Shown here: in pieces, positions 6,137-39,218 of the stretch | Layout of the letters: each line of letters opens with the position of its first letter | Position numbering within the stretch: position 1 is the stretch's first letter | Assembly (NCBI GenBank): GCA_947626875.1 | Contig: CANQTV010000004.1 | Span: 3,506 to 67,505, forward strand | Direction: 5' to 3' | DNA length: 64,000 bases | Source of the DNA: an uncultured Clostridia bacterium | GTDB taxonomy: Bacteria; Bacillota; Clostridia; TANB77; CAG-508 | Position numbers and translations under genes: made by a program | Notes under the pieces: generated by a model | The model's input: only the letters and a program-made list of their open reading frames with translations | Told to the model about the DNA's origin: nothing | The model's database searches: none

Positions 6137-6268
6137 AACCGGGAATTGGGGGACGCCCTTTTTTTCCCTATGCTATTTTTCCCTCTTTGTAAAAAAATAA
6201 ATATTTTTATAATAATAAACAAAGAGGGAAAAATAGCATAGGGAAAAAAAGGGCGTCCCCAATTCCCG
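6137..6268. repeat. Palindromic intergenic repeat, copy A. Perfect hairpin of about 132 bp with arms GGGAATTGGGGGACGCCCTTTTTTTCCCTATGCTATTTTTCCCTCTTTGT and an AT-rich loop of about 30 nt.
   Basis: Read directly. It abuts the stop codon of ytfJ (6269) and lies upstream of the spoIIA promoter. Confidence 0.9.
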
Positions 6269-31949: not shown

Positions 31950-31994
31950 TTTCATATTTTTTGCTTTTTCACATAAATTGGTATTGGTGATATT

Positions 31995-33464
31995 GTGAGA
32001 AAAGCAAAAATCTTTATCATAAATGGTTTTATTCTAACAGTTAGTTCACTCATTATGCGTGGTGTAGGACTTATTTTTAATATATATGTAGCAAATCAAG
32101 TTGGTCAAGAAGCAATTGGTATATTTAGTTTGGTTATGTCTGTTTATTTATTTGCTATTACCTTTGCTTCTTCTGGTATTGGTCTTGCTTGTACTTGTAT
32201 TGTTTCTGAAGAAATTGAAAAAAATGATTTTGCAAGTGGTTTAAAGGCTGTTAGGACATGTATGTTTTTCTCCCTTATTCTTGGCTTATCTAGTTCAATT
32301 CTTTTATTTATGTTTTCCCCTATTATTTCTGATGTATGGTTACAGGGAAGTGTTTCAAAAATGCCTATTTACACTATCTGCCTTGGGCTTCCACTAATTA
32401 GTATTTCTAGTGTAATAGATGGCTATTTTTCAAGTACTGGAAAGTCTTTTAAAATTGCTATTTCAGATTTTTTTGAATTGTCTATAAAGATAATTTCTAC
32501 TATTTTTTTATTAAAATATACTGTAAATGAAGGAATTGATGCTATTTGCTGTAGTCTCATTTTGGGAGATGTTATTTCTGAGTTTTTCTCATTTTTATTA
32601 AATATTTTATTATTTTATTTTGATAGAAAAAAGATGTCTAAAAAGCGTAGCTATGTTAAAAATATGGGAAAACGTATTTTGAAAATTTCTTTTCCTGTTG
32701 CAATCACTTCATATATTCGCTCTGGCTTATCTTCTTTAAAGCAGTTTTTAATTCCAATGCGTTTACAAATATCTGGTCTTAATTATTCTTTAGCAATATC
32801 AAAATATGGATTGATTACAGGTATGGCAATGCCTATTTTGATGTTTGCTAGTTTTTTTATTAATTCTTTTAGTGCTCTTTTAGTTCCTGAATATGCAAGA
32901 CTTTTGGCTGGGAAAAATTTTAATCGAATGAAAACTGTTTGTGACAAAATTTTTAATATTACTTTTATATTTTCTTTTTTAGTAGCTGCTATTTTTTTAT
33001 TTTTTGCTAATGAAGTTAGTTTAATGGTTTATCAGAATTTGGATGTAGCTCTATATCTCCGCCTTTTAGCACCTTTGGTAATCTTTATGTATATTGATAA
33101 TGTTATTGATAATATGTTAAAAGGTATGCAGGCACAATTTCATGTGATGTGTGTTAATATTTGTGATTTATTGATAACAATTTCTATTATTTATTTTGTT
33201 GTTCCAGTGCTTGGTGTAAATGGTTATCTTGTTAGTATTATTGTTAGTGAAATTTTTAATTTTACAGTAAGTTTTTTATTGCTAAAGAAAAAATTAAATC
33301 TTCATTTTGATTTTTGGCATTTTTGTGTAAAACCTTTTTTGATTGTTATATTGGCATTTTTCTTTTGCTCTTTTATTCCAATTCAAAATGAAAATTTTTA
33401 CATATATGCAATTTTAAAAATTTGTTGTTTTATTTCTTTCTATATTGTTCTAATTTTTCGCTAA
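31995..33464 (+). CDS. spoVB: Stage V sporulation protein B / MOP-superfamily polysaccharide flippase
   Basis: 14-TM protein. N-terminus GFILTVSSLIMRGVGLIFNIYVANQVGQEAIGIF resembles SpoVB/MurJ-like. GTG start. Confidence 0.65.
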   Translation: MRKAKIFIINGFILTVSSLIMRGVGLIFNIYVANQVGQEAIGIFSLVMSVYLFAITFASSGIGLACTCIVSEEIEKNDFASGLKAVRTCMFFSLILGLSSSILLFMFSPIISDVWLQGSVSKMPIYTICLGLPLISISSVIDGYFSSTGKSFKIAISDFFELSIKIISTIFLLKYTVNEGIDAICCSLILGDVISEFFSFLLNILLFYFDRKKMSKKRSYVKNMGKRILKISFPVAITSYIRSGLSSLKQFLIPMRLQISGLNYSLAISKYGLITGMAMPILMFASFFINSFSALLVPEYARLLAGKNFNRMKTVCDKIFNITFIFSFLVAAIFLFFANEVSLMVYQNLDVALYLRLLAPLVIFMYIDNVIDNMLKGMQAQFHVMCVNICDLLITISIIYFVVPVLGVNGYLVSIIVSEIFNFTVSFLLLKKKLNLHFDFWHFCVKPFLIVILAFFFCSFIPIQNENFYIYAILKICCFISFYIVLIFR

Positions 33465-33466
33465 GA

Positions 33467-33592
33467 GGGAATTAGGGACGCCCTTTTTTTCCCTATGCTA
33501 TTTTTCCCTCTTTGTAAAAAAATAAATATTTTTATAATAATAAACAAAGAGGGAAAAATAGCATAGGGAAAAAAAGGGCGTCCCCAATTCCC
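33467..33592. repeat. Palindromic intergenic repeat, copy E (single perfect hairpin plus loop)
   Basis: It fills the gap from the spoVB stop (33464) to the convergent gene's stop (33593). Confidence 0.9.
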
Positions 33593-34327
33593 TTAAAGAT
33601 TTTCTTGTAGTATTTTTTTGATACAATTATCAAATATTGATTGTATTTCTTCTGGTGAAAAAATTTGATATTCTGTAGTATCTAGTTCAATTGATTTTTT
33701 TAAGCTTGATACTTCTTCTAGATATTTAATTGTTTCTAAAATATCTTGTTTTTCAAGTGTTAACCATGGAATGTCTTTTGCATATTCCAGCATTTTTTCA
33801 TCATATTCTGGAATATCTGCTAGATGTTTTTCATATATGTGTTTTGAAAATATTTTGAAATCATTTGTTTTTATTTTTCTTAGATTGTCTTTTGGTGCTA
33901 TAATTTGTTTTCCATTTCTTAATTGTAAACCAATTAAAAATTTATCTTCATTAAAAATGCCTTTTCCTCCATATGTTACGTTATTCCAAAATGTATCTGT
34001 GATAATATGTGTATAATATCCTAATATCAATGGATTGTTGAATTGTTTATGATATTTATCATAAAATCCTTGTATATCATGCCTATGTTCTTTATGATTG
34101 TTAATTTGTACCTCAACTGCGAAATGTGTTTTATTATGTGATACTTGATGTGATATGTTTTTTACTACATATCCATTTAAAATATCTGGTAATATATTTC
34201 CTAGTAAAAAAATATTTTTATCTTGAGAATTTATATTTAATTTTTTATTTAATTGTGTTGCTGTTGCTAAGTGTATTGCCCATGCTGGCATGGAAGCACC
34301 TCCTCTTTTTTCTTCATCATACATCAA
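33593..34327 (-). CDS. Zinc-dependent phospholipase C-like family protein
   Basis: N-terminal WAIHLATA...H motifs. About 240 aa. Confidence 0.4.
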   Translation of the reverse strand: MMYDEEKRGGASMPAWAIHLATATQLNKKLNINSQDKNIFLLGNILPDILNGYVVKNISHQVSHNKTHFAVEVQINNHKEHRHDIQGFYDKYHKQFNNPLILGYYTHIITDTFWNNVTYGGKGIFNEDKFLIGLQLRNGKQIIAPKDNLRKIKTNDFKIFSKHIYEKHLADIPEYDEKMLEYAKDIPWLTLEKQDILETIKYLEEVSSLKKSIELDTTEYQIFSPEEIQSIFDNCIKKILQENL

Positions 34328-34402
34328 TTTCCTTAAATTGTAAAGTTATTTTTTGCTTAATCCTACATATATTTTAGTAATATAATCTTTAAGGAGGGTG
34401 TT

Positions 34403-34857
34403 ATGAAATTCCAAAAATATATTTCAAAAACATTGATTTTTCTTATTTCTTATATTTTGTTGTTTCCTTTTTTTAGTTTTGCTGTTAATGATAGTAGTTA
34501 TATTTGGTCTGTGGCTAATCCTTCTATTGCTACAAGTAGCGAGCCTGTAACACAAAATTCCGATGATAATAGTTTGAATTTAGAAAGTGGTTCTGCTATT
34601 TTGATTGAACAGCGTACAGGTCAAGTATTATATAATCATAATGCACATGAACAATTGCGTCCTGCTTCTGTTACAAAGGTTATGAGCATTTTGCTAATCA
34701 TGGAAGCTATTTCTAATCAGAAAATTGCATTAACTGATAGTGTTCCTTGTTCTGAAAATGCCGCTTCTATGGGTGGTTCTCAAATTTGGCTTGATCCAAG
34801 AGAAACATTAACAGTAGATGAAATGTTAAAAGCAATTTGTGTTAATTCCGCCAATGA
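34403..34857 (+). CDS. dacB: 5' portion of the sporulation-type D-alanyl-D-alanine carboxypeptidase (PBP5*, S11), interrupted after the SAND (SxN) motif
   Basis: Signal peptide, SVTK (SxxK), then ...CVNSAND. The ORF then runs into element DNA and stops 5 codons later. Confidence 0.8.
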
Positions 34858-34916
34858 TTACAATGTACAAAAATGACACAAAAATTTTGATTTTAAAAAA
34901 TTGAAAATTTACTTTT

Positions 34917-36476
34917 TCAATTTTTTATTTTTTTAACTTCTGAAAAGTTGAAATAAATATATACTTCTTTTTTTAATACTTCTATTTTTTTTATCAATTC
35001 TTTAACTTCAAAATTTCTAAAGTCACTTTTTTCTAATTTGCTTATTTTCTTTAATAAGTTTTTCTTTTGACTTAAAGTGTTTAATTTATTATCTTCCATC
35101 TTTTTTTCTGTTTGAGATATTTTTTCTGTAATACTTTTTCTTTGTTCAGTTAGAGCGTTATATCTATTTTTATATTCATCTTCATTTATACTTTCAGATA
35201 GTCTTTGATTATATAATGATGTAATCTTAAAATTTATTTTTCTTAAATTTATTTTTAATATTTCTAAATCAGCAATTTGTCTTTTTGTAATATTCTCTAC
35301 ATACTTTTGATATGCACTGTTTTTTAATTTTGTACTTTTAAAATATTCTTTATATATTTTTATAATAAATTTAATGATTTTGTCTTCTATATGTTTATAA
35401 TTTATTTTACAATTATTTGGGCATAGCTTTGAATTTTCACTATGATTTCTACAATAAATATATACTTTTTCTCTTTCTTTTCTAAAAATAAGTTTTTTGC
35501 CACAACTTTTACAATAAATAAAGTCTTTAAATAGATAATTTGTTTCCTCATGTTTTCGTCTTGTCCCATATTTATTTGTATTATGTACATTGTTAAAAGT
35601 TTCTTCTGATATAATAGGTTCATGGGTATTTGGTATCATAATAAATTCATTTCTCTTAACATATATTCTATCTTTTGATTTATAGCTTATGTTTTGAGTT
35701 TTTCCTCTAATACAATGTCCCAGATATACTTTATTACTTAAAATTCTTGTGACAGAACTTTTTCGCCAGATTTCTTTATTTTTTACCTTTTCCAATCCTT
35801 TTATATTTAGATATTCTGCTGGTGTTTTGTAATGGTTCTTATCAAGATATTTAACTATTTGTGGAGTTGTATATCCTTTTTCTTTTAATTCAAAAATTTT
35901 TTTTACTGTTTTACTACTTTCTTTATCAATGATTAACTTTCCTGCATTATTTGGATCTTTTTTATATCCAAATGGTGCCGTATTACATGCATAAAATCCT
36001 TCTTGCATCTTTTTTCTCTTGGTTTTTTTTATAGCTATAGATGTATCTTTACAATATTTTTCATTGAATACTGATTTAATTGGAATAAAATCATTGCTTA
36101 TATTATCATTAAAATTATCAACTTTATCAAAAATAGCTATGTATCTAACACTATGGTCTGGAAAATACTTTTCTATATATGTACCTGTTTCAATATAATT
36201 TCTTCCTAATCTGGCTAAATTTTTTGTGATAACCATATTAACTTTTTTATTCTCTATATCTTTTATCATTATTTTAAAAGCAGGCCTATCAAAATTTGCT
36301 CCAGTATATCCATCATCAACATATTCATTATATAATTTCATATCTGGATGTTTATCAATATATTCTTTTATTATTTTCCTCTGGTTTGTTATACTTTCAC
36401 TTTCAATATTATCTCCATCATCTTTACTTAACCTTAAATACATTGCAACATTATAAATAACTTGCTTATTTGACAT
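34917..36476 (-). CDS. Large serine recombinase (resolvase catalytic domain, recombinase domain, zinc ribbon, coiled coil), downstream paralog
   Basis: YLRLSKDDGD...ESITNQ (catalytic Ser), VDDGYTGANFDRP, VITKNLARLGRN, Cys-rich zinc ribbon (CKSCGKKL...C), C-terminal coiled coil. Confidence 0.85.
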   Translation of the reverse strand: MSNKQVIYNVAMYLRLSKDDGDNIESESITNQRKIIKEYIDKHPDMKLYNEYVDDGYTGANFDRPAFKIMIKDIENKKVNMVITKNLARLGRNYIETGTYIEKYFPDHSVRYIAIFDKVDNFNDNISNDFIPIKSVFNEKYCKDTSIAIKKTKRKKMQEGFYACNTAPFGYKKDPNNAGKLIIDKESSKTVKKIFELKEKGYTTPQIVKYLDKNHYKTPAEYLNIKGLEKVKNKEIWRKSSVTRILSNKVYLGHCIRGKTQNISYKSKDRIYVKRNEFIMIPNTHEPIISEETFNNVHNTNKYGTRRKHEETNYLFKDFIYCKSCGKKLIFRKEREKVYIYCRNHSENSKLCPNNCKINYKHIEDKIIKFIIKIYKEYFKSTKLKNSAYQKYVENITKRQIADLEILKINLRKINFKITSLYNQRLSESINEDEYKNRYNALTEQRKSITEKISQTEKKMEDNKLNTLSQKKNLLKKISKLEKSDFRNFEVKELIKKIEVLKKEVYIYFNFSEVKKIKN

Positions 36477-38097
36477 CAGATTTTCTCCCTATACAGTTCA
36501 TTTCATAAAAATTAAAATATATTACTGCATGATTGTTTTTATCAACTTCAATTCGGTTTATTAATTGATTTATTATTTCCTTTGTATATTCTTTATCTTT
36601 AAGAATTTTTTTGATGATTTTTTGCATATTTGTTTTTATTCTGTTATTAATTATGTCTTCTTGAAAGCTGTCTAATTCTTTTCTAGTTTCCTTTAAAACT
36701 TTTTCTATTCTATGTCTTTTACTAATCAGGTTCTCTGAAAATAATTTGAAATCTTGTTCTTCAAGTAATCCACTTAATTTATCATCATATAATATCGTTA
36801 TTTTATTATTTACTCTTTCTAAGTCTTTTTCTAATTTTTCTATCTTTTCTAAAATATTTCCTTTATTTTTTTGTGATTGGAGTATCTTTTTTAAAGCATC
36901 TTCATATTTAAATGCATCTTTTGAATTCATGTATATTTCTAAAACCTCTGCTATTTTAGATATGGCCTTCTTTTCAAAAGCATTATAATTTATGTATCTG
37001 CTATAACATGGTTTATTCGTATATTTTTTTGTTGCTGTGTCACATAAAATATATCTTCTTGTTACATCTCCATATTTATTATGATCTACTTTAGTCCTAA
37101 TAGTTAGCTTATTATTGCAATGAGCACAATATAGTAATCCTTTAAATATAACATCTGTTTCTCTTATTTTTGCATTTTTATGATTTTTTAGCATTTCTTG
37201 GACTATATCCCACTTTTCTTTACTTATAATAGGCGGATGATGATTTTTTATTATGCTGTATTCTTCTTTTGGTAAACTAATTATTTTTTTGCTTTTATAA
37301 CTTATTTTTTTAGTTTTATTTTGAACACAATTTCCAATATATATTTGATTTTCTAATATTCTTCTTATTGTATTGTGATTCCACTTATTGGTTGTATTAG
37401 TTATATTGTTGACAACACAAGTCATTTTCATTTGTACTCCAGGTGTTTCAATATTACTATCTGTTAATATTCTTGCAATTTGATATGTACCATATCCTTT
37501 AATAAATAAATCAAATATCTTTTTAACAATTTCTGCTTGTACCTCATCAATTTCTAAGTTTCCAGATTTACTTACTTTCTTATATCCGAATGGTGCATAA
37601 GAAGTATAATAAAATCCTTCTAATTTTTTTCTATTTTTTGTTTTTTTTATGTTTTTAGATGTTTCTTTTGCATAGTAGTCATTCATTATATTTTTAAATG
37701 CAACTGTGTCACAATTTTTATCTAAAAAAGTATCAACATCATCTAAAATTGCAATATATCTTACTTCTTTTTCTGGGAAAAATGTTTCAATATATCTACC
37801 AGTTTCAATATAATCTCTTCCTAGTCTTGATAAACTTTTTGTAATAACCATATTGACCTTTTTATTTTCTATATCGTTTATCATTCTTTTAAAATTAGGT
37901 CTATTGAAGTTTGTTCCCGTATAACCATCATCAACATACTCATCATATATTTTATAGTTATTTTCCTTTGTATAAGCTTTTAAGATTTTTCTTTGATTTA
38001 CAATACTCTCACTTTCTTCTCTATCTCCATCTTCTTTACTTAATCGAATATAAATTGCAGCTTTGTATTCTTGATTATTTACATTTTTGATGTTCAA
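36466..38097 (-). CDS. Large serine recombinase, upstream paralog. About 65% aa identity to the neighbour in the catalytic domain. It overlaps the neighbour by 11 bp.
   Basis: IYIRLSKEDGD...ESIVNQRK, VDDGYTGTNFNRP, VITKSLSRLGRD, zinc ribbon CAHCNNKL...C. Confidence 0.85.
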   Translation of the reverse strand: MNIKNVNNQEYKAAIYIRLSKEDGDREESESIVNQRKILKAYTKENNYKIYDEYVDDGYTGTNFNRPNFKRMINDIENKKVNMVITKSLSRLGRDYIETGRYIETFFPEKEVRYIAILDDVDTFLDKNCDTVAFKNIMNDYYAKETSKNIKKTKNRKKLEGFYYTSYAPFGYKKVSKSGNLEIDEVQAEIVKKIFDLFIKGYGTYQIARILTDSNIETPGVQMKMTCVVNNITNTTNKWNHNTIRRILENQIYIGNCVQNKTKKISYKSKKIISLPKEEYSIIKNHHPPIISKEKWDIVQEMLKNHKNAKIRETDVIFKGLLYCAHCNNKLTIRTKVDHNKYGDVTRRYILCDTATKKYTNKPCYSRYINYNAFEKKAISKIAEVLEIYMNSKDAFKYEDALKKILQSQKNKGNILEKIEKLEKDLERVNNKITILYDDKLSGLLEEQDFKLFSENLISKRHRIEKVLKETRKELDSFQEDIINNRIKTNMQKIIKKILKDKEYTKEIINQLINRIEVDKNNHAVIYFNFYEMNCIGRKSDVK

Positions 38098-38103
38098 AAC
38101 AGC

Positions 38104-38259
38104 CTCCTAACTATTTTCTAGTTTACTAATTAAAATTTTTTCCATTATATTTTGAAAACTATCTCCATTTTTATTAAAAGCGATAGAAAATTCTATATTA
38201 TCATTTTTTTTTGATTTTTGTTCTTTTGTGCAATTTTTATCTGAAATATCGTTTTTCAT
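38104..38259 (-). CDS. Tiny ORF (51 aa) immediately upstream of the recombinase pair. Candidate recombination directionality factor or regulator.
   Basis: RBS AGAGGTG 8 nt before the ATG. No recognisable domain. Confidence 0.2.
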
Positions 38260-38508
38260 TTTAAAGCACCTCTATCTAATAATTATGTATAAAGCTATCA
38301 TTTATTCATCTGATTTTCATTTATTTTTTCTTACAAAAAAGGTCTTTTTTACATAATGTTGTTTTTCTCCCTAAAATATGTTATAATTATTATAGGAAAT
38401 AGAAAATAGCAAACCAAATGAAAATTTGGGACGCAAAGCCATAGGTCTAAAAGAAGGAATTCTCATGATAGCTCGGTTGCCTAATTCATTTTTATGGAGG
38501 TGATCCTT

Positions 38509-39117
38509 ATGAGATTTTTCAAAAAAATTTTAGTGTTTATGTTATTGATAATGATGCTAACTATGTCTTTTGGTAGTGTTCAAGCTATGAGTAATAATGC
38601 AAAAAGACTTAAAAATGCTCTTCATTCTATGTCTGATTATATATATAATGCTCGAAATAAAAATGCATGGAAATGGACTTATTCACAATCAGGACAAGCT
38701 GATACATTTGAAAAAGCCAAAAAAACAAATAATCGAGTTATGGACTGTGCTAGATTTTTAAGTTGGGGATTAATTAAAATAGGTGTATTTAAACCTGGTC
38801 AAAAGTTCTATAAAAAAGAAAATGGCAACATAACCTATAATTCTCTTGATGCACAAAAAAGAATGCATAAATATGCAATTGTAAAAAATATAGAAAGTAA
38901 GAATTTAACAGTAAAGCAGGCTATACATAGAGGCTTAATTAAAGCTGGTGATATTATTTGCTATAATTCACATGTTAATTTATATGCTGGAAACTCATAC
39001 TTTTATGATGGTGGATCTACTTTTACAAAAAATGGAAAATATAAATCTATTTTATATGGTAAAATTAGTAAATATATGAATTCAGAAAAAGTAACACGTG
39101 TTATAAGATTAAAATAA
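38509..39117 (+). CDS. Secreted protein with putative papain-like (NlpC/P60- or CHAP-like) Cys...His active site. Cargo of the element.
   Basis: RBS GGAGGTG. Signal peptide MRFFKKILVFMLLIMMLTMSFGSVQA. DCARF (Cys) ... CYNSHVNLYAG (His). Confidence 0.35.
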   Translation: MRFFKKILVFMLLIMMLTMSFGSVQAMSNNAKRLKNALHSMSDYIYNARNKNAWKWTYSQSGQADTFEKAKKTNNRVMDCARFLSWGLIKIGVFKPGQKFYKKENGNITYNSLDAQKRMHKYAIVKNIESKNLTVKQAIHRGLIKAGDIICYNSHVNLYAGNSYFYDGGSTFTKNGKYKSILYGKISKYMNSEKVTRVIRLK

Positions 39118-39130
39118 TAAATACCATAAA

Positions 39131-39162
39131 AGAAGTTGCTAATTTATTAGTAACTTCTTTTT
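39131..39162. terminator. Terminator hairpin AAAGAAGTTGCTAAtttattAGTAACTTCTTT followed by a T-run
   Basis: Read directly, after the cargo gene. Confidence 0.6.
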
Positions 39163-39218
39163 TTATTAAAAAATCATTCACCAAAATACTTTTTACTTGT
39201 GTATATATTGTACATTAT

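Follow-up and report, generated by a model that had tools for sequence, protein, structure and literature searches.

In a 64,000-nucleotide stretch of contig CANQTV010000004.1 (positions 3,506 to 67,505) from an uncultured Clostridia bacterium, hereafter the window, two adjacent genes for large serine recombinases (LSRs), LSR-A and LSR-B, lie in a 4,365-bp insert that splits a dac gene for a D-Ala-D-Ala carboxypeptidase. The tandem pair of paralogous LSRs is real and far beyond chance, and the insert is precisely bounded, its removal restoring an intact dac. Comparative analysis showed LSR-A and LSR-B to be ancient paralogues that always occur together, are predicted to be catalytically intact and translationally coupled, and evolve under purifying selection. 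Together with a small open reading frame (ORF) ahead of them, orf50, they would form the obligate two-recombinase module of an element intervening in a sporulation gene. Paired LSRs that act together are the best-supported reading of these data, and one towards which we lean on balance.

A recombinase pair within a split dac gene

The two genes are arranged head-to-tail on the minus strand, with exactly the bounds given in the initial annotation of this DNA (Table 1). The overlap reported there was also seen: the two genes share 11 bp (ATGTCAAATAA), the ATG of LSR-B lies 11 bp inside LSR-A, and a ribosome-binding site for LSR-B, GGGAG, falls within the last codons of LSR-A. Both products matched the Pfam families Resolvase (PF00239), Recombinase (PF07508) and Zn_ribbon_recom (PF13408) above cut-off, and the integrase family phrog_95 (E = 3e-99 and 9e-93 for the pair). 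BLASTP aligned them with each other at E = 7e-100 and 40% identity across 534 aa, which makes them paralogues. Identity fell from the N- to the C-terminus as had been described, from 63% in the catalytic domain to 37% in the recombinase domain and 27% in both the zinc-ribbon and coiled-coil regions. A value of about 65% amino acid identity, proposed earlier for the catalytic and recombinase domains alike, therefore held for the first domain and neither for the second nor for the proteins overall. At the nucleotide level the proposed 80% identity over the first 300 bp was too high, successive 100-bp segments measuring 65%, 70% and 85% (mean ~73%).

For both proteins the nearest solved structure was the catalytic domain of TnpX (2MHC; E = 4.5e-27 for LSR-A and 1.3e-25 for LSR-B, ~50% identity). 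Residues S20 of LSR-A and S17 of LSR-B align to TnpX S15 and are the predicted nucleophiles, and the catalytic motifs Y-x-R-x-S, NFxRP and R(L/F)(G/A)R(D/N)Y are present in both window proteins. Inactivation of the catalytic Ser or Arg residues had been named beforehand as evidence against a working pair; these residues are intact in LSR-A and in LSR-B. The window element contains no other recombinase. An AT-rich hairpin over the LSR-B stop codon (Table 1) has a homologue at four other loci of the family (L009, L019, L020 and L026; loci and contigs carry L numbers throughout), and a GC-based terminator scan gave no call at its position.

The insert, with the LSR pair as its recombination module, occupies exactly 34858-39222 and splits the PBP5-type Peptidase_S11 gene dac at AAT|GA of the SAND active-site motif (SxN). 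The junctions read GCCAAT-GA-TTACAATGTACAAAAATGACAC and GTGTATATATTGTACATTATAT-GA-CTGTGTTGTTGCC, with ATGA common to both, and the arm next to the dac 5' part matches the other end and 18 further arms of the family in motif and register. When the dac halves were joined in silico at GA, an intact 413-aa protein with the motifs SVTK, SAND and KTG resulted, 99% identical to a natural intact protein (P0121). The contig encoding P0121 (L099) comes from a related strain with an empty site, and its identity to the window flanks is 96.5%. Its two aligned segments correspond to 34136-34857 and 39219-40502 and overlap by the 4 bp ATGA, so that exactly 34858-39222 is missing; the empty site thus joins 34857 to 39223 and confirms the bounds of the insert. 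NCBIfam gave only generic matches at the DacA/DacD level for the target Dac.

Table 1. Features of the insert and its target gene (positions within the window).
Feature	Coordinates	Strand	Description
dac 5' part	34403..34857	+	Peptidase_S11 profile positions 8-107 of 239; ends at GA crossover 34856-34857
attL P-type arm	34858..34879		adjoins dac 5' part; TTACAATGTACAAAAATGACAC, reverse complement of GTGTCATTTTTGTACATTGTAA
AT-rich hairpin	34900..34921	-	TTGAAAA..TTTTCAA plus T run, over LSR-B stop; probable recombinase-operon terminator, as read from the sequence
LSR-B	34917..36476	-	519 aa, ATG start; downstream LSR, predicted catalytic S17
LSR-A	36466..38097	-	543 aa, TTG start, AGGAGG 6 nt 5'; upstream LSR, predicted catalytic S20
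orf50	38107..38259	-	50 aa, stops 9 nt short of LSR-A; first gene of the module, motif FxIxFxxxGxSFQxIxExILIxK
Sigma-E-type promoter-like motif	38280..38307	-	GAATAAA-N13-CATAATTA, directly 5' of orf50
c-di-GMP-I riboswitch aptamer (cargo)	38398..38484	+	Rfam RF01051, 81.6 bits (gathering score 35)
Cargo gene	38509..39117	+	secreted 202-aa protein; NLPC_P60 (NlpC/P60) similarity weak, E 0.013, below cut-off
attR P-type arm	39199..39222		adjoins dac 3' part; GTGTATATATTGTACATTATAT plus GA core 39221-39222
dac 3' part	39223..40009	+	Peptidase_S11 107-238 plus PBP5_C

Conservation of the module across gut Clostridia

More than 100 homologues of LSR-A at 67-88% identity were found in gut metagenomes. 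A genome scan restricted to one genome per species yielded 29 metagenome-assembled genomes with an LSR-A orthologue at 53-87% identity, all of them gut Clostridia, from human, rabbit, chicken, goat, sheep and mouse. In each of these 29 species-level genomes an LSR-B orthologue lies directly 3' of LSR-A on the same strand. A dac gene split at the identical AAT|GA adjoins every family locus with sufficient flank, in the genomes and also on metagenome contigs (L001-L018), and no family member with a lone LSR-A or a lone LSR-B, or at a site other than dac, was found. Complete elements measure 4.4 to ~13 kb, with one of ~18.8 kb; their cargo is variable, sigma-factor genes, LysR-family regulator genes and radical-SAM enzymes being examples, and the only common part is orf50-LSR-A-LSR-B.

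The cargo of the ~18.8-kb element (P0014; L009-L018) includes LysR, radical-SAM, ATP-grasp, ABC ATPase and sigma-70 region 4 proteins. More than 13 kb of it recur at ~99.9% identity in at least five host dac backgrounds from the human gut, which indicates that the family is still moving horizontally. Several contigs (L014, L015) terminate at the exact crossover base, an assembly breakpoint at the recombination junction. For the far (left) junction of this element a single metagenome scan gave only an hrcA-linked remnant of low coverage and the CAG:440 scaffold. On L101 (1-300), also of low coverage, the last 54 LSR-B codons and an intact attP-like site are fused directly to hrcA, which is either what a deletion left behind at a different locus or an assembly chimera. 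A phage or plasmid origin of the family was rejected, the best relatives reaching at most 41% identity in IMG/VR and at most 35% in phage and plasmid collections.

The linkage of the two genes extends to their overlap. In all 21 intact pairs the LSR-B start lies 8-35 bp inside LSR-A, with GGAGG placed within the conserved ..NCIGG codons of the latter, and the motifs Y-x-R-x-S, NFxRP and R-x-x-R-(D/N)-Y are invariant across the 21 LSR-A and 21 LSR-B orthologues. The ratio of nonsynonymous to synonymous substitution rates (dN/dS) was ~0.10 for LSR-A and ~0.17 for LSR-B (36 comparisons), as expected under purifying selection; together with the intact catalytic residues, these values argue against LSR-B being a pseudogene. 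The LSR-A and LSR-B clades are reciprocally monophyletic sisters, and their pairwise distances correlate (r = 0.98), indicating co-inheritance. Identity between LSR-A and LSR-B was 62.8% within one element and 61.8% between elements. This equality points to an old duplication inherited as a unit, rules out gene conversion as the source of the N-terminal similarity and leaves constraint as its explanation. LSR-B evolves faster than its partner, with 42% identity in the zinc-ribbon and coiled-coil region among LSR-B sequences versus 58% among LSR-A sequences.

At four loci with an apparent LSR-B pseudogene (L030, L038, L039 and L042) LSR-B contains one extra base at the same spot, AGA-TTT-C-GGA-AGA (L038 11870-11900). 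There the +1 frame opens 3 codons 5' of this spot and remains open for ~430 codons despite 18-25% nucleotide divergence. With a slippery UUU followed by the rare codon CGG and so long a frame kept open, the extra base looks like a programmed +1 frameshift that would restore RFGRNY in this sub-clade, rather than decay. Such a conserved frameshift with an open downstream frame is further evidence that full-length LSR-B is selected.

Tandem LSRs are not rare: two or four in a row were found at 14 of 51 more distant LSR loci of gut Clostridia. A second, unrelated family of tandem pairs (T1/T2), 33-38% identical to LSR-A, occurs in gut Clostridia and Lachnospiraceae (L068-L075, L079, L082, L089, L093 and L096) and clusters by position in the pair. 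Four consecutive LSR genes lie at L077 9995-16647, and Clostridium sp. CAG:440 holds both pair families (L021 and L072).

Homologues of orf50, 45-60 aa long, precede the LSR pair in almost all of the 29 genomes. The window orf50 product had no match in Pfam, NCBIfam or PHROG, and we regard it as a candidate accessory or directionality factor. A role as general LSR partner was discarded, a hidden Markov model of orf50 finding nothing beside the 51 more distant LSR loci. Clade 2, the second clade of the family, has additional conserved genes 5' of orf50 (L041 8390-9157, L047 9585-10330 and L038 9438-9725). An extra ORF of ~95 aa in this clade contains ..IAYSKIAVNNM..LLAQIDILP.., and an ORF of 133-140 aa in L041 and L047 is ~33% identical to the N-terminal catalytic domain of LSR-A and would be a third, short resolvase-like protein.

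The DNA 5' of orf50 is otherwise unalignable and holds one conserved block, GAATAAA-N13-CATAnTnA followed by a ribosome-binding site, replaced in clade 2 by TAATATT-N14-CATAGACT or TAATAAA-N14-CATACATT. The strict pattern kmATAww-N13/14-CATA was found once, 5' of orf50, in 27 of 31 family loci, against a background of 9 matches in 128 kb (both window strands). A promoter scan of the window gave no sigma-70-like site 5' of the module. In C. difficile and B. subtilis, an ATA -35 with a CATA -10 element marks sigma-E promoters (PMC3789822), and judged by these motifs a conserved putative promoter of the mother-cell sigma-E type lies ahead of the module. A strict motif of this type, TCATATT-N13-CATAAATT (31952-31979), stands just 5' of a SpoVB-like flippase gene (31995-33464) and was used as an internal positive control. 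In the dac promoters a CATA[TC]A element resembling a -10 was present in 10 of 17 hosts, versus 0.094 expected per region, and the strict sigma-E motif in 4 of the 17; 5' of the window dac, no sigma-F or sigma-G motif was found by eye, with no formal test. Near the locus, the window has SpoVB-like and SleB/CwlJ-like sporulation genes, and L010 has GerA and SpoIVA.

The cargo unit of the window element (38348-39161) begins with a sigma-70-like site (38348-38377) before the riboswitch and ends with a terminator (39128-39161) after the gene. It may encode a putative cell-wall hydrolase controlled by cyclic di-GMP (c-di-GMP), which would then ride on an insert splitting a cell-wall carboxypeptidase gene. 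Elsewhere in the window, the plus strand holds three identical copies of the 26-mer TTGTAAAAAAATAAATATTTTTATAA (6187-6212, 19501-19526 and 33512-33537); the third copy is intergenic, just 3' of the SpoVB-like gene, and may be a repeated intergenic element or a terminator.

Attachment sites and element orientation

The element ends are inverted copies of GTGTCnnAATTGTACA, 22 nt on each side of a GA core, and the two arms have changed in concert to CCTGTnnnATTGAACA in clade 2. In one register about GA the 22-nt arm reads GTGTCnnAATTGTACAnnnTAn in clade 1 and CCTGTnnnnATTGAACnnnnTAn in clade 2, on both sides. The initial annotation had described two different half-sites at the element ends; these proved to be copies of a single co-varying motif. 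The reconstructed attP, GTGTATATATTGTACATTATAT-GA-TTACAATGTACAAAAATGACAC, is a near-perfect, if imperfect, inverted repeat centred on the non-palindromic GA, and GA is common to attL, attR and the empty attB. Symmetric, co-varying attP arms point to one DNA-binding specificity on both arms, which argues against LSR-A and LSR-B reading different ends.

The attB arms are constrained by coding, and as read from the sequences they match each other at 6 of 24 positions. In the arm on the dac 5' side GTGT is shifted 5 bp towards the core relative to its place in attP; such a displacement is the known offset between attB and attP half-sites of LSRs. This motif is missing from the arm on the dac 3' side. 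Given this dissimilarity we propose that the second paralogue may be needed at the asymmetric attB.

Elements were found in two orientations. In type I, seen in the window and in 15 of the 29 genome loci, LSR-B adjoins the N part of dac in antisense; in type II (8 genome loci) it adjoins the C part in sense, and an attP arm overlaps the LSR-B stop codon. Many type I elements retain a complete palindromic attP-like site just after this stop codon, for example ATGTCTAAATTGTACAGTCTAT-GA-TTGTGATGTACAATTTAGACAT (L009 13183-13345; equivalents in L020, L021, L031 and L044), and are integrated via a second, inverted site 60-240 bp further on. The window element has lost the first of these sites, so that a single attP is a feature of type II elements and, among type I, of the window. 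The P0014 element has been integrated through either site (L010 and L011 versus L009, L012 and L016), and a third half-site is present in L041 and L044. In-place inversion of elements beside the N or C part of dac was ruled out, DNA comparison showing that a different attP-type site and core orientation had been used. Orientation thus depends on which attP-type site is used and does not map onto the two LSRs. That two LSRs might reflect two attP sites was likewise ruled out: both genes are present in the window element and in every type II element, although each of these has a single site. Where two attP-type sites exist, their arms carry one motif.

Proposed action of the pair and comparison with known systems

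We propose that LSR-A and LSR-B would be made from one mRNA and act as obligate partners in one synaptic complex, with strand exchange at GA. One paralogue would bind both arms of the symmetric attP and, on the dac 5' side, the attB arm that resembles them; its partner would serve the dissimilar attB arm, directionality, or both, with orf50 as a possible cofactor. This division is suggested by the attP arms sharing a motif and the attB arms being unrelated to each other. Driven in the mother cell during sporulation by its sigma-E-type promoter, the module would excise the insert and rebuild dac there, and the forespore would retain the element. The insert is probably excised upon expression of the module during sporulation, the promoter motifs supporting a skin-like logic short of proof.

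Several observations weigh against this proposal. LSR-A is split in L027 and L037 and LSR-B in L029, and L046 has truncated copies of both, which indicates that an element can persist with disrupted partners and does not depend on having both. A homodimer would suit the symmetric attP arms, and a single LSR could in principle suffice, as with TnpX and TndX. A sporulation promoter ahead of all three genes would make expression for integration in a new host hard to explain. The promoter itself is assigned by motif alone, with a 13-nt spacer in clade 1, and parts of it could be read as a weak sigma-A promoter. On the target side, the window dac promoter has a CATATA -10 element and no clear -35, and C. 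difficile dacF is under sigma-G (forespore) control (PMC3789822), which leaves the rebuilding of dac in the mother cell unproven for this dac.

Were the family an ordinary mobile element, the conserved dac codon block would be a safe landing site, the insert would have no developmental role, and occasional excision would serve horizontal transfer alone. The recent horizontal spread indicated by the >13 kb, ~99.9% identical element in at least five dac backgrounds would be as expected, as would the variable cargo, the empty sites of related strains and the contigs broken exactly at the crossover. However, an ordinary element gives no reason for the sigma-E-type promoter at 27 of 31 loci, for the missing sigma-70-like promoter 5' of the module or for the sporulation genes beside the locus in its hosts (the window and L010), and the 4.4-kb element showed no transfer genes. 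The target also belongs to an enzyme class that includes spore-cortex carboxypeptidases, among them DacB and DacF of B. subtilis. We consider this explanation somewhat unlikely. Slightly less probable in our view is a division by direction, in which one LSR would integrate (attP x attB) and the second, alone or with orf50, would give excision or directionality, so that the pair would replace or extend the arrangement of an LSR with a small recombination directionality factor (RDF) seen in skin-type elements. The known intervening elements do excise by LSR plus RDF, namely CD1231 with CD1234 (PMC5025042) and GirC with GirX (PMC5595907), and here three proteins are conserved, one of which (orf50, 45-60 aa) has the size of an RDF. 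The faster evolution of LSR-B is marked in the coiled-coil region that controls LSR directionality (42% versus 58%), and the conserved +1 frameshift, which would limit full-length LSR-B in one sub-clade, fits a dose-controlled regulator. A pure regulator, however, would have no need of the full set of catalytic residues that LSR-B keeps under purifying selection, and one tight operon of LSR-A, LSR-B and orf50 offers no obvious way to express the integrase without its directionality partner.

It is quite unlikely, as we see it, that the pair is a redundant relic of an old tandem duplication or element fusion, with one LSR working at dac and the other a passenger or active on other substrates, such as in multimer resolution or fusion of elements. 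Precedent exists in gin, whose girAB genes are silent and dispensable for the sporulation rearrangement and for which a role in multimer resolution or composite formation has been proposed; CcrAB can also recombine non-canonical pairs of sites (PMC5595907). Single family members with one broken partner and the second complete attP-like site of several type I elements point the same way. Yet retention in 29 of 29 genomes, a dN/dS of 0.17, invariant catalytic residues and a conserved overlapping start are unlike a passenger, no member with a lone LSR-A or LSR-B or outside dac was found, and the second attP-like site shares its arm motif with the first and so provides no separate specificity. The partnership of two active LSRs might also take a more specific form, an obligate, RDF-independent and developmentally triggered heteromer in which one subunit reads the symmetric attP arms while the other reads the unrelated attB arm and determines direction, with the stoichiometry tuned in one sub-clade by a programmed +1 frameshift (UUU-CGG-A) in LSR-B. 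In so detailed a form we think it improbable.

The initial annotation had likened the two genes to ccrA and ccrB, and the likeness holds in that they are an inseparable unit on comparative grounds (29 of 29 species genomes, 21 of 21 overlaps). Family membership did not survive comparison with the NCBIfam equivalog models for CcrA (NF047344, cut-off 700) and CcrB (NF047343, cut-off 900): LSR-A scored 99.3 bits with CcrB and gave no match to CcrA, and LSR-B scored 83.6 bits with CcrB and 43.8 bits with CcrA. Scores of about 10% of the cut-offs and a different target place the pair outside the Ccr family, and the resemblance is one of analogy. Like LSR-A and LSR-B, the genes for CcrA and CcrB (of SCCmec and, as ccrABEnt, of the enterococcal cassette chromosome) are the sole conserved genes of a cargo-variable, non-conjugative cassette whose one site lies within a conserved host gene (PMC6222049, PMC5595907). 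They invariably form a two-gene operon (PMC5595907), and in SCCmec the two serine recombinases are reported to collaborate on an asymmetric site (PMC4363357). Unlike CcrA and CcrB, LSR-A and LSR-B have each other as nearest relatives (40% identity, sister clades), they target the SAND codons of dac and not the 3' end of rlmH (orfX), and the system has a symmetric attP, a sporulation-type promoter and an additional conserved 50-aa ORF.

A second comparison is with gin of Bacillus cereus, a non-phage element in the sporulation gene gerE with a two-LSR operon, girA-girB; it differs in being excised by a third LSR, GirC, with the 42-aa RDF GirX, and GirA and GirB are only 22-26% identical (PMC5595907). 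In the dac element the pair is the only recombinase set and stands behind a sporulation-type promoter, whereas girAB is dispensable and silent. A further group comprises skin (SpoIVCA with Skr in B. subtilis, CD1231 with CD1234 in C. difficile), SPbeta with SprA and SprB, vfbin, vrin and yin. As with dac, an LSR-bearing insert splits a gene, in these cases a sporulation-associated one, and precise excision restores the frame; in them sigma-E control of the recombinase or the RDF confines excision to the mother cell (PMC5025042, PMC4191935, PMC10747680). These elements are prophage-like with a single LSR and a small RDF, in contrast to two LSRs and no phage genes in the window element, whose 4.4 kb also make it much smaller than they are.

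TnpX (Tn4451/3), like TndX (Tn5397) the LSR of a clostridial transposon, shares the signature Y-x-R-L-S-x-D-D ... ES-SI-NQ with LSR-A and LSR-B. Strand exchange by TnpX and TndX takes place at a GA dinucleotide. Unlike the pair, however, they choose targets more loosely and act alone without an RDF, as stated for the recombinase of the integrative and mobilizable element Tn4451, there named TndX (PMC5704250). Over its full length LSR-A is at most 35% identical to any plasmid- or phage-borne LSR. The LSR triplets of streptococcal integrative and conjugative elements (ICEs; Tn5252/Tn1549-type) are multi-LSR modules that cluster by array position, implying an ancestral duplication maintained as one unit, and they insert site-specifically in protein-coding genes with 2-8-bp repeats (PMC4701971). 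Clustering by position is also seen for LSR-A and LSR-B and for the second pair family T1/T2. The triplets differ in having three genes, in residing on large conjugative elements and in their targets mutT, hsdM and traG.

Multi-LSR modules (CcrAB, girAB and the ICE triplets) and elements intervening in sporulation genes have thus been known separately, with LSR doublets and triplets on record from gin and from ICEs of streptococci (PMC5595907, PMC4701971). Our literature search found no report of a dac-intervening element, nor of a two-LSR operon as the sole machinery of an intervening element. The larger result is a compact and widespread family of dac-splitting elements of spore-forming gut Clostridia, with two LSRs and a small ORF behind a sigma-E-type promoter. 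With a module of ~3.4 kb and sites of ~50 bp, this natural system could help to address why some serine recombinases form obligate pairs, a question solved only in part for CcrAB, and could show whether an LSR pair relaxes the requirement for a quasi-symmetric attB, which is relevant to integrase engineering. An RDF-independent heteromer, if true, would give serine integrases a novel means of acting on a coding sequence that is fully asymmetric and of setting their direction. Such a mechanism would be spread widely among gut Clostridia, and its two components could be adapted as an integrase for genome editing. Since the elements are common in the guts of humans, rabbits, chickens, goats, sheep and mice, they may affect spore-cortex maturation in many uncultured Clostridia.

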